Shown: piece by piece, positions 6,443 to 7,911 of the stretch | Layout: the number at the start of each line of letters is the position of its first letter | Position numbering within the stretch: position 1 is the stretch's first letter | Assembly: GCA_963169765.1 (NCBI GenBank) | Contig: CAUJEN010000043.1 | Coordinates: forward strand, 20,164-84,163 | DNA: 64,000 bases | DNA from: Vulcanimicrobiota bacterium | Lineage (GTDB): Bacteria; Vulcanimicrobiota; Xenobia; Xenobiales; QWHO01 | Reading direction: 5' to 3' | Made by a program: the position numbers and the translations under genes | The notes under the pieces: model-generated | What the model was told of the DNA's origin: nothing | Seen by the model: the letters and a program-made list of their open reading frames with translations, nothing else | Databases searched by the model: none

Positions 6443-7084
6443 GTGGCCACCTACACCCTCACGCAGGAAAGCCCGGTGATGAGCCGTCTGCTGCTGGGCC
6501 GCATCCCGGCCGATACCTACGTCAAAGATCGTCTCTTCGTGCCCAACGTGCCTCCGGCCGACAACACTGAGACCGAGGTTTACGAGCAGGCTCCCGAGCT
6601 GGATGCCGGGGGGGGGATCCGCATTCTGCGCAGCACCGAGCAGGTGCAGGCCGAGCCCTATTCACCGGGCCGTCGAGCCCTCGCTTGCGGACTTCTGAGC
6701 GCCGCCACGGCGACCACGGTGGGGGGACTGGCGGGCGGGCTGCCTGGGGCTCTCACCGCCGGCCTGACGGCTCTGACCCTGGGCGGCGCTCTGGGTGGCT
6801 GGAGCGCCCGCAACGACTCCGTCAGCGTGCTGACCCGCGAGGAGAAGGTGACCCTGCCGGTGATGACCGGCTACCGCCGGGCCACTCTGGACGAGCCCTA
6901 CACCAGGGGGAAGGGGCGCCTCCATTACGCTCTGCCCACCATCGAGCACCGCCCGGTGGGGCTGGTGAAGAAGCAGGATCTGACCCACAGCGCCATGAGA
7001 GCGGAAAAGGCGGCCCTTCTCAGCGCCGCCCTCGGAGTAGCCGTGGGTCTGACGGGCTACTTGCCGGTGCCGGTGATCACGTAG
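6443..7084 (+). CDS. Hypothetical protein with central glycine-zipper hydrophobic segment
   Basis: 213-aa ORF. 'ACGLLSAATATTVGGLAGGLPGALTAGLTALTLGGALGG' is a Gly-zipper TM. 3' end overlaps the convergent CHAP gene by 28 nt. Confidence 0.4.
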   Translation: MATYTLTQESPVMSRLLLGRIPADTYVKDRLFVPNVPPADNTETEVYEQAPELDAGGGIRILRSTEQVQAEPYSPGRRALACGLLSAATATTVGGLAGGLPGALTAGLTALTLGGALGGWSARNDSVSVLTREEKVTLPVMTGYRRATLDEPYTRGKGRLHYALPTIEHRPVGLVKKQDLTHSAMRAEKAALLSAALGVAVGLTGYLPVPVIT

Positions 7085-7911
7085 CCGCTGATCTTGCCCG
7101 AGCCGATGTCGTAAGAGTTGCGCTTGACCGAGTCGGAGGAGTTGCCCTCGATGGTGGTCACCTTCCCGCCGTTCACGCTCTCCACGATGCCGATGTGGTC
7201 CACCGTGCCGTCCCCCTCCCAGTCGAACAGGATGGCGTCGCCGGGCTTGGGATTGTACTGACCTCGGTTGCCCCAGATGCCCTTGTTCTGGGCCCAGCTT
7301 TTGATGGTGGGACAGTAGTTGCGGTTGGAGAGCCCGTCCAGGTTGAGCACCCCGTGGTCCTTGAGCAGGTTCATGGCCCAGGCGGCGCACCAGGGTGTGG
7401 AGGCGGGATTGATGCCGCTCTTGCCCGTGACCGACTGAATGGCTGCAGTGTCACGATTCTCGTTCATTCCGATCATGGAGCGGGCTTTGTCCAACATGCC
7501 CTCCACGCCGGGAGCCACCGGGCCGGTGGGAATGGGAGCTCCGCCGCCCCCCGCGTTATTCACCCCTGCGCCGCCGCCTCCCAGGGGACCGCCGCCGTCG
7601 ATGCCCCCGAGCGGGCCACCCCCCCCGAGCGGGCCCCCGCCGCCGAGCAGGCCTTCCATCCCGGGCATCATGCCGTTGCCGGCCATCCGCCCCACCATCA
7701 GACCCATCAGCAGCCCGAACAGATACTGGGTCAGCATCATCTGCTGGTTCATCATTTGCATCAACGGATCCAGGCCGGCCATGGGCGACATCGGATTCAT
7801 CATCAGTCGATTCTGGGCCGCGCCCAGGTTGCCCATCATCGGCCCGCTGCACGCGCAGCACCCTTCGGCATTGAGTCCGCTGGCAGCTTGCAGGGCTAAG
7901 AGTGGATCCAT
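7057..7911 (-). CDS. CHAP-domain peptidoglycan amidase/peptidase with Met-rich and Gly-rich N-terminal regions
   Basis: C-terminus 'WCAAWAMNLL...HIGIVESVNGGKVTTIEGNSSD' gives the Cys...His CHAP catalytic signature. N-terminus 'MMNPMSPMAGLDPLMQMMNQQMM' is Met-rich, followed by (GGGGPL)n repeats. Confidence 0.7.
   Translation of the reverse strand: MDPLLALQAASGLNAEGCCACSGPMMGNLGAAQNRLMMNPMSPMAGLDPLMQMMNQQMMLTQYLFGLLMGLMVGRMAGNGMMPGMEGLLGGGGPLGGGGPLGGIDGGGPLGGGGAGVNNAGGGGAPIPTGPVAPGVEGMLDKARSMIGMNENRDTAAIQSVTGKSGINPASTPWCAAWAMNLLKDHGVLNLDGLSNRNYCPTIKSWAQNKGIWGNRGQYNPKPGDAILFDWEGDGTVDHIGIVESVNGGKVTTIEGNSSDSVKRNSYDIGSGKISGYVITGTGK

Follow-up and report, generated by a model that had tools for sequence, protein, structure and literature searches.

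Export and restraint of wall-cutting enzymes are central to bacterial growth and lysis and, to our knowledge, nearly all that is understood about them derives from Sec and twin-arginine (Tat) signals and from phage systems with holins or signal-arrest-release (SAR) domains. The described hydrolases of the CHAP and NlpC/P60 types, such as the phage lysins PlyC, Ly7917 and PlyPy or the Clostridioides difficile autolysin Acd24020, have Sec signals, cell-wall-binding domains or phage contexts. Here we analyse a gene located at positions 7057-7911 of the reverse strand in a 64,000-nucleotide stretch of a Vulcanimicrobiota genome (contig CAUJEN010000043.1; the whole stretch is called the window from here on). 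The C-terminal 150 residues of its 284-amino acid product are like those of the enzymes above, but the protein has in front of them something that they do not have, a methionine-rich segment with a helix, followed by a glycine tether. This region is conserved and selected, it has relatives on other hydrolases, and it may be a module for export or localisation, and for self-association, that is independent of Sec.

Several described systems come close to one or another aspect of this protein. SAR endolysins are likewise muralytic enzymes in which an N-terminal helix that is not cleaved, is only weakly hydrophobic and contains Gly takes the place of a classical signal peptide, but the helix of the window protein is much more polar, internal and Met/Gln-rich rather than Gly/Ala-rich, and its gene is chromosomal, without holin or phage genes nearby. 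Glycine-zipper helices (GxxxGxxxG) are known from the Pfam Gly-zipper families, VacA, MscL and residues 29-37 of A-beta (GAIIGLMVG). The window protein has the series G66-x3-G70-x3-G74-x3-G78 flanked by Leu and Met (FGLLMGLMVGRMAG), but in most relatives these positions are occupied by Gln or Ser and not by Gly, and membrane insertion is not predicted. The Met-rich motifs that handle Cu(I) or Ag(I) in CueO, PcoA/CopA, SilE/PcoE and the Ctr1 “Mets” motifs are about as dense as the MxM and MxxM motifs found here, but the latter have no His or Asp partner and their Met residues are not positionally fixed. Finally, the extended signal peptide region (ESPR) of autotransporters, the YSIRK signals and the long leaders of peptides made by ribosomes and modified after translation (RiPPs) that end in GG are all long conserved extensions before an exported cargo, as is the case here. 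However, in the window protein there is neither a hydrophobic Sec-type H-domain nor any basic residue, a C39-peptidase ABC exporter is absent from the vicinity of the gene, and what would be carried is a folded enzyme of 150 residues. Each of these nearest analogues (SAR domains, extended signal peptides, glycine zippers and Met copper motifs) fails at least one defining test. In short, the catalytic domain belongs to a known family, while the N-terminal region is, as far as comparison of sequences goes, without database counterpart.

The Met-rich N-terminal region

The coding sequence, taken from the list of open reading frames (ORFs), ends with a stop codon at 7057-7059 and begins at the ATG of position 7911. 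This is the earliest start possible, with an in-frame TGA 19 codons 5' of it, and a Shine-Dalgarno (SD) sequence GGGAGG (7916-7921, reverse strand like all features of this section) lies 4 nt before it and is kept as GGGAGG or GGAGG at the orthologous loci. The GC content at third codon positions (GC3) is 0.86 in frame vs. 0.60 and 0.50 in the other two frames. The protein begins with an uncharged cap (residues 1-23, MDPLLALQAASGLNAEGCCACSG; 7843-7911), whose first residues MD(P/A/G)L are kept in orthologues and which contains a CC-x-C motif (residues 18-21; 7849-7860). The Met-rich segment proper follows (residues 24-86; 7654-7842) and includes the motif GAAQNRL (residues 30-36; 7804-7824; family consensus GGAAL[D/N]RL in the alignments) and a predicted helix (residues 49-76, PLMQMMNQQMMLTQYLFGLLMGLMVGRM; 7684-7767). 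Between it and the catalytic domain there is a Gly-rich, flexible linker (residues 87-130; 7522-7653) with no predicted secondary structure and a pLDDT of ca. 50. The linker of GGGGPL repeats described by the first-pass annotation of this stretch was recovered as two exact units plus a degenerate one (GGGGPLGGGGPLGGIDGGGPLGGGG).

The clustering of Met is real, with 17 in the 63 residues of the segment (27%) and a peak of 12 in 40 (30%), but the earlier figure of about 30% for the first 70 residues was too high, the count there being 13 (19%). The background in the long ORFs of the window is roughly 1.3%, and no other ORF in the 64 kb comes near these values. A search for other CHAP proteins with such N-termini, suggested by the same annotation, was productive. 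Among 112 relatives with a long N-terminus, 88 have a Met-rich one (defined as at least 8 Met in some stretch of 40 residues), and the median Met content is 11.9% in the N-terminal part vs. 2.4% in the CHAP part. The order of motifs is also a property of the family, with GGAAL(D/N)RL followed 15-25 residues on by DP(M/L)xQM(L/M)..Q.QML..M..LL.LM, and in many relatives a (N/S)FLGG(GG) motif is conserved after the helix. Residues A8 and R11 of alignment A1, in the region of the GAAQNRL motif, are invariant. Ratios of non-synonymous to synonymous substitution rates (dN/dS) against five orthologues were 0.08-0.23 for residues 24-86, close to those of the CHAP domain (0.03-0.23), and 0.15-0.30 for the cap, while the Gly linker had the highest values of the protein (0.12-0.36). 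Judged from these alignments, the Met-rich segment is conserved and under purifying selection and is not a product of drift. Neither of the two doubts raised at first, that it was low-complexity drift not conserved in orthologues or that the true start lay downstream of it, holds up, because the segment is part of the translated frame, recurs in orthologues and shows the mark of purifying selection.

The helix at residues 49-76 is the only one that AlphaFold2 predicts in the first 130 residues (pLDDT ca. 75), the rest being disordered, with flanks rich in Gly, Met and Gln. To describe the Met-rich segment plainly as a disordered region misses the conserved helix inside it. Hydrophobic residues are conserved at positions 50, 53, 54, 60, 64, 65, 68, 72, 73, and 76, where Met alternates with Leu, Ile and Phe; the Met columns are 20-68% Met and the remainder is made up of these three. 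Column statistics reveal in addition a stripe of Gly, Gln or Ser at positions 62, 66, 70, and 74, and the hydrophobic moment at 90 degrees (period 4) was significant in 33-37 of 62 sequences (p<=0.05). In the window protein the stripe takes the form of the glycine zipper G66/G70/G74/G78. Stripes of the type (small or polar)-xxx-(small or polar) generally mark the packing of helices against each other.

The N-terminal region is difficult to search with. A profile made from the 14 sequences of alignment A1 gave a single marginal match, residues 1-86 produced no candidates in a word-indexed search, and phmmer found 0 matches among 1.84 billion representatives. These searches with the N-terminus alone came to nothing because the composition correction of HMMER and the word filter defeat a sequence so biased. 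No counterpart of the region was found in Pfam, NCBIfam or PHROGs, and a look through the literature on Met-rich CHAP or peptidoglycan hydrolases and on hydrolases of Eremiobacterota found nothing relevant.

Catalytic domain and relatives

The catalytic domain occupies residues 131-284 (7060-7521, reverse strand). Pfam PF05257 (CHAP) matches residues 171-257 with 51.7 bits (cutoff 26; E=1.2e-13), and all of 64 aligned sequences have C175 (in PWCAAWA; codon 7387-7389), H239 (in DHIGIV; codon 7195-7197), E255 and N257. The AlphaFold2 model has a pLDDT >93 for residues 135-284 and recovers the papain-like alpha+beta fold, the best Foldseek matches being Acd24020, Ly7917, PlyPy, PlyC, and Gsp amidase, all with probability 1.00 and at identities of 14-21%. 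The original reading as a CHAP cell-wall hydrolase with canonical Cys and His is borne out, and by sequence and fold the product can be taken as a genuine CHAP peptidoglycan hydrolase of the NlpC/P60 papain-like superfamily. It aligns weakly over the full length of TIGR02594 (NCBIfam) across the catalytic domain (residues 138-278), but it is not a member of that family (22 bits, cutoff 70.55). As a side observation, an SD-like GGAGG within codons 135-139 (GGC GTG GAG GGC ATG; 7495-7509, reverse strand) lies 4 nt before the ATG of Met139, and an internal start there could give a product of 146 amino acids with the CHAP domain only.

A phage origin of the gene was considered and rejected. We read the gene as a member of a chromosomal, lineage-specific CHAP subfamily and not as a prophage lysin, because a sequence search of PDB with the protein detected nothing at E<=1, PHROG endolysin families match residues 139-268 only (E=1e-16), and viral contigs have only distant CHAP domains with no more than 37% identity, the similarity being confined to the domain (residues 125-278).

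The protein search retrieved 462 homologues, the best of them 98% identical and coming from a metagenome-assembled genome (MAG) of Candidatus Xenobia (Eremiobacterota). The scan of species-representative genomes gave 54 loci, of which ca. 40 are clear family members (at least 48% identity). Most of these come from MAGs that bear the label Vulcanimicrobiota, Eremiobacteraeota, Xenobia or UBP9, and some from MAGs with another label. The other ca. 15 are distant relatives in Kitasatospora/Streptomyces, Bacteroidales and Proteobacteria. Within the family the CHAP domain is 60-80% identical. A cultured isolate of Eremiobacterota has a diderm envelope in which the peptidoglycan is thin, and it possesses type IV pili but is without flagella (PMC9758169).

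Similar N-termini on other hydrolases

CHAP proteins are not the only ones that carry such a region. In an Eremiobacterota MAG (locus L005) four consecutive genes have Met-rich N-termini ahead of CHAP, CHAP, NlpC/P60 and SLT domains, and the same series of CHAP, NlpC/P60 and SLT with Met-rich N-termini is found at loci L018 and L019. At L041 a Met-rich N-terminus precedes a GH19-like domain (E=2.8e-5, just below the Pfam cutoff), although this N-terminus was compared by eye only. Across the enzyme classes the N-termini align and have in common MLxGxxPMQ(F/Y)GMGM, (GMxGM)n, MQxMQQxMQ, and MSQxLGxYMNG. They represent a (GMxGM)n subtype that is different from that of the window protein, and the two are linked through family alignment A2, which contains both, and not by direct alignment of the N-termini. 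On the strength of these alignments, we conclude that a homologous Met-rich region, of another subtype, precedes NlpC/P60 and SLT domains and that a compositionally similar one precedes the GH19-like domain. Loci L018 and L019 also contain, ca. 7-8 kb from the Met-rich hydrolase cluster, a gene for a small Gly-zipper protein (Pfam Gly-zipper_Omp/YMGG) with a Met-rich C-terminal tail (QQYMQSMMMSNMGGMQMQGMMMPQMMMPQMGMGF; 18312-18695 in L018 and 12666-13154 in L019, both on the reverse strand).

Possible roles of the N-terminal region

We looked for the known export signals in the window protein. A manual check for Sec or Tat signals found no Lys or Arg in residues 1-34, no RR pair, and a sole hydrophobic stretch at residues 59-77; 73% of the family members have no Lys or Arg in their first 30 residues. 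As to type VII secretion, the N-terminal 130 residues have no Trp (hence no WxG), a single predicted helix and no Pfam match. The signal peptide, Tat or type VII motif that the first-pass annotation had proposed to look for was in no case apparent on manual inspection of residues 1-130. Exported proteins encoded in the same window, SodC and Amidase_2, have ordinary signal peptides, and in distant Streptomyces and Kitasatospora homologues from this CHAP subfamily the domain is immediately preceded by a classical Sec signal (MKLSRRTAAAVTLTALTLLPLGAATAPASA).

There are several possible explanations for a conserved region of this kind at this place. The one that we prefer, with a probability of roughly 40%, is that the N-terminal region is a lineage-specific module for non-Sec export or localisation and for self-association. 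A role in export or localisation is the most economical one because wall hydrolases need access to the wall and the Met-rich region sits where a signal peptide would. The architecture would be an uncharged cap with the GAAxxRL motif, a Met/Leu/Gln-rich helix (residues 49-76), a Gly tether of ca. 45 residues and a CHAP amidase or endopeptidase with its Cys-His pair. The N-terminal region would replace the Sec signal peptide, taking the hydrolases from the cytoplasm to the outside and/or to the place where they act, and the zipper helix would let them associate with themselves or with each other, possibly in a reversible manner at the membrane surface. The Gly tether would then give the catalytic domain access to the thin layer of the wall, and Met would provide a flexible, weakly hydrophobic and possibly oxidation-sensitive surface instead of metal ligands. 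Transcription would probably start ca. 30 nt upstream of the ATG, under the control of a factor that recognizes two tandem TnACA-N3-YGGCAA repeats (see below). A more specific version, in which the Met-rich zipper region is a novel Sec- and Tat-independent sorting signal that takes a whole set of murein hydrolases (CHAP, NlpC/P60, SLT, and GH19-like) across the inner membrane, seems to us doubtful. Such a route could consist of self-translocation, of an oligomeric pore formed by the zipper helix or of a dedicated exporter, and a related one may serve the subtilase, the C92 amidase and the ATLF-like protease that the window encodes, which are likewise signal-less. Of the alternatives originally mentioned for this segment, a targeting region is the one that fits best, given that a homologous region is found on other hydrolases and in the place of the signal peptide, although the role itself is something that we infer, as we do oligomerisation and the regulatory role of the repeats.

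A number of observations weigh against this reading. Export is argued from necessity, in that the substrate lies outside the cytoplasm. The gene neighbourhood varies between distant loci, with synteny only among close orthologues, and across the loci examined the CHAP gene has no constant neighbour that would encode a translocon, a chaperone or another partner. A Q/E-rich coiled coil makes up the N-terminus in some clades, and the homologous helix can be rich in Gln, Leu, Ala and Glu and poor in Met, so that Met as such may be dispensable. A classical amphipathic helix (100 degrees) was rejected (median z ca. 0). The best 19-mer of the window protein (residues 58-76; Kyte-Doolittle (KD) hydropathy 1.28) has an additive deltaG of +4.5, compared with a median of +6.2 in the family, where just 2 of 114 members fall below +2. 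CHAP proteins are the only ones on which the subtype of the window protein (GAAxxRL ... DPMxQM ... Gly zipper) was encountered, and the notion that only hydrolases carry such regions comes from ca. 1 Mb of loci picked around CHAP genes.

One alternative is that the Met-rich helix is a low-complexity domain for self-association or condensate formation and nothing else, clustering hydrolases that leave the cell by lysis, by holin-like or by other means. The period-4 zipper of Gly, Gln or Ser, typical of helix-helix packing, would be well explained by it, and so would the tandem genes for four hydrolases with alignable N-termini, the Q/E-rich coiled coils of some clades and the disordered flanks rich in Gly, Met and Gln. 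However, it leaves without explanation how four classes of signal-less wall hydrolases gain access to the periplasm in a diderm, and we consider it unlikely.

Somewhat less probable still is that the signal for a dedicated one-step secretion machine, similar to a type III secretion system (T3SS) or of another kind, lies in the very first residues, which follow the pattern M-[I/L/N]-[N/G/P]-[F/L/M]-x-[N/P]..., carry no charge and abound in Ser, Asn, Pro and Gly. The Met-rich helix would then be a chaperone-binding region and the enzymes would be delivered outside, e.g., against neighbouring bacteria. The N-terminal pattern is indeed conserved and free of charge, the subtilase, C92 amidase and ATLF-like metalloprotease of the window have no Sec signals (two of them start with MI.Q...RP, like some CHAP relatives from gut lineages), and a predatory lifestyle has been suggested for a related family of Eremiobacterota (PMC9259500). 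But no secretion-system genes were seen next to any locus examined, type VI secretion genes included, and no adjacent immunity gene was recognized, the four hydrolase genes of L005 being back to back with no interspersed genes. As to a Tae-like amidase effector of type VI secretion, which would go with a neighbouring immunity gene, the window gene has beside it the convergent gene for a membrane protein of 213 amino acids without match in Pfam or PHROGs. The cultured relative moreover has no flagella (PMC9758169), and the likeness to T3SS signals is one of composition.

The export and self-association reading has also to be weighed against explanations centred on the chemistry of Met, and here our expectations are low. 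The helix could be a redox switch or oxidant sink in which Met sulfoxide makes it polar and thereby releases, activates or inactivates the hydrolase. Oxidation-regulated, self-associating Met-rich domains are known in eukaryotes (yeast Pbp1 and TDP-43), and Met appears specifically selected in a genome of 66% GC, where codons for Leu, Val and Ala are favoured. Against this, no methionine sulfoxide reductase (Msr) genes were seen nearby and the Met-poor clades keep the same architecture, which makes the switch improbable.

Slightly more improbable is the idea, put forward in the first-pass annotation, that the Met clusters bind Cu(I) or Ag(I). Joined by the CC-x-C motif, they would make wall hydrolysis responsive to copper status or serve as a buffer for the metal. 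The motifs MxM, MM and MxxM are certainly dense, CCxC is present at residues 18-21 and the gene of a Cu/Zn superoxide dismutase (SodC) lies ca. 2.3 kb away. But this linkage exists in close relatives only, the median number of His in the N-terminal part of the 112 relatives is zero (the Met-rich region of the window protein has none), and only 26 of the 112 have a Cys pair (CC or CxxC). In addition, the Met columns swap freely with Leu, Ile and Phe, the homologous helix is poor in Met in some clades, and Met lie in a helix with a periodic hydrophobic pattern, so that copper binding is poorly supported.

Equally improbable, a signal-anchor or SAR-type transmembrane segment inserted via Sec/YidC, tethering the enzyme to the inner membrane until depolarisation releases it, would account for the presence, on a muralytic enzyme that has no cleavable signal, of an N-terminal helix with Gly and weak hydrophobicity, for the GxxxGxxxGxxxG zipper of the window clade and for the endolysin-like CHAP domain, but we rejected it because the helix is too polar (the deltaG values given above compare with +0.5 and +0.8, and KD >2, for two SAR domains taken as controls, and a 19-residue KD of at least 1.6 is reached by only 2 of 114 family members), it begins at residue 49 with no basic N-region, and there is no phage, holin or SAR lysis context, the neighbours in the window being housekeeping genes (kinase, glutaredoxin, BolA and ScpAB).

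Upstream region and direct repeats

The non-coding region upstream of the gene (7912-8293) had been described as ca. 12% lower in GC than its surroundings. This figure was too high, since its 62.6% is only 3-5 points below the window (66.0%) and the kinase gene (67.3%) and equal to the mean of the other intergenic regions (62.7%), so its composition is ordinary. It contains two tandem direct repeats with the unit T-n-ACA-N3-(C/T)GGCAA and a period of 20 nt (7976-8015, reverse strand), a probable regulator site. The copies span 7976-7993 and 7996-8013, with 72% identity over 18 nt and a spacing of 20 nt, which places them 66-104 nt upstream of the ATG. The window contains 3 occurrences of their core TNACANNNYGGCAA, where chance would give 0.10, and in 100 shuffles a count of 3 was never attained. 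At six orthologous loci, with protein identities as low as 69%, the cores T.ACA and (C/T)GGCAA do not vary, while their flanks diverge.

A putative -10 hexamer TATCCT (7940-7945, reverse strand), TAnnCT in the orthologues, lies ca. 30 nt before the ATG; T96, A97, C100 and T101 are invariant in alignment A3, and at five orthologous loci the proximal GGCAA is constantly 39 nt from TAnnCT. The region is thus probably a promoter with two sites for a regulator. The repeats had been proposed as an operator. They are real, conserved and probably regulatory, but their position (ca. -47 to -80 relative to the putative -10) makes them look more like an activator site. The scanner found no sigma-70 consensus promoter upstream of the CHAP gene, the spacing in the orthologue sequences, checked manually, is unsuited to a sigma-54 or extracytoplasmic function (ECF) sigma factor, and a LytTR-type repeat consensus fits only one of the two units. 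An Rfam scan of 6800-8500 gave nothing credible. The third copy of TNACANNNYGGCAA (46754-46767, reverse strand) is upstream of the ORF 45572-46669 (reverse strand), 38 nt before a TAGGAT hexamer and a C-run. This ORF encodes a membrane-anchored protein of 365 amino acids with no Pfam match, and by this arrangement the gene may be co-regulated with the CHAP gene.

Beyond the repeats, the stretch 8021-8293 is a variable non-coding spacer and a hot spot of insertions and deletions, as seen in blastn comparisons with loci L001, L011 and L012. Homology to close relatives stops at the stop codon of the kinase gene (8294) and restarts at ca. 8020, at the repeats, and the relatives hold 1.1-3.4 kb where the window has the spacer. 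The counterpart in L001 (6450-9890) has genes for a 116-amino acid membrane protein, a DUF222-HNH endonuclease and a 149-amino acid protein, two small membrane-protein genes being among them, and five tandem repeats of ca. 60 bp (at about 8700-8950). Of all these, the window keeps just a 33-nt tail of the 149-amino acid gene (8158-8190). The ORF 7958-8290 (reverse strand, 110 amino acids) was discarded as a gene, having no Pfam match and no counterpart in relatives and lying within the variable spacer.

Gene neighbourhood and other signal-less enzymes

Convergent to the CHAP gene there is a gene for a membrane protein of 213 amino acids (6443-7084, forward strand; GC3 0.84) that overlaps its 3' end by 28 nt. 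The protein has no match in Pfam or PHROGs and contains a Gly/Ala-rich zipper-like segment (GGLAGGLPGALTAGLTALTLGGALGG), and its gene is syntenic in close orthologues only. The overlap is kept in L003, while in L001 ca. 240 bp, including a 32-nt duplication, lie between the two genes.

At 13 divergent loci (L005 at 6677-7912, L017-L019, L037-L043, L049, and L052) a gene directly upstream of the CHAP gene and on the same strand encodes an all-helical protein of ca. 410 amino acids with a CxxC...CxxC zinc ribbon (24-31% identity), present as two tandem paralogues in the gut lineages. The protein belongs to no Pfam family, tblastn did not find it in the window, and it is a candidate functional partner of the hydrolases. 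At locus L009 (4297-7758), from a Vulcanimicrobiota MAG, the genes directly upstream of the CHAP gene are three of pseudopilin type and one with a Gln_deamidase_2 domain, and those downstream encode a radical SAM protein and a protein of the Cu-oxidase_4 (YfiH) type.

The window encodes further enzymes that look secreted and have no Sec signal. Several share the leader M-I-x-Q...(S/A)xxRP(Q/T/S)xA, found in the forward-strand genes 59644-61899, 26674-27543 and 24517-25407 and also in 1237-1854. Its carriers include a subtilase whose prodomain is fervidolysin-like (MISQIHHQSGLSSLSRPQSAAS; strong SD), a permuted papain-like amidase of family C92 (MILQQVNTASFARPTQATE) and a DeoC-like ORF with an extension of 70 amino acids. 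CHAP relatives from the gut lineages, e.g., at locus L030, start in a similar way (MITNLPQ...SARPAHS), and this leader may be a second lineage-specific N-terminal signal. Apart from these, a protein of 496 amino acids (20177-21667, reverse strand) has a Pro-rich N-terminus, a C-terminal ATLF/M90-like metalloprotease domain with HExxH and no signal peptide. Directly 3' of its gene, with overlapping stop and start, a gene on the same strand (19875-20177) encodes a highly acidic protein of 100 amino acids, and by analogy the pair resembles an effector with its chaperone or inhibitor.

Implications

We are faced with a poorly studied phylum, with a single cultured isolate in the literature consulted, in which at least four classes of hydrolases have a conserved, selected and Met-rich region at the place of an export signal. 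If this region directs export or assembly, it would represent a new principle of sorting or assembly, and a tag of ca. 130 residues would be available as an experimental handle. If instead it is only an oligomerisation domain or a redox-sensitive domain of low complexity, it would still be a rare bacterial case of a self-association domain based on Met. The conserved tandem repeat upstream of the gene offers a testable entry point to the regulation of autolysins in this phylum.

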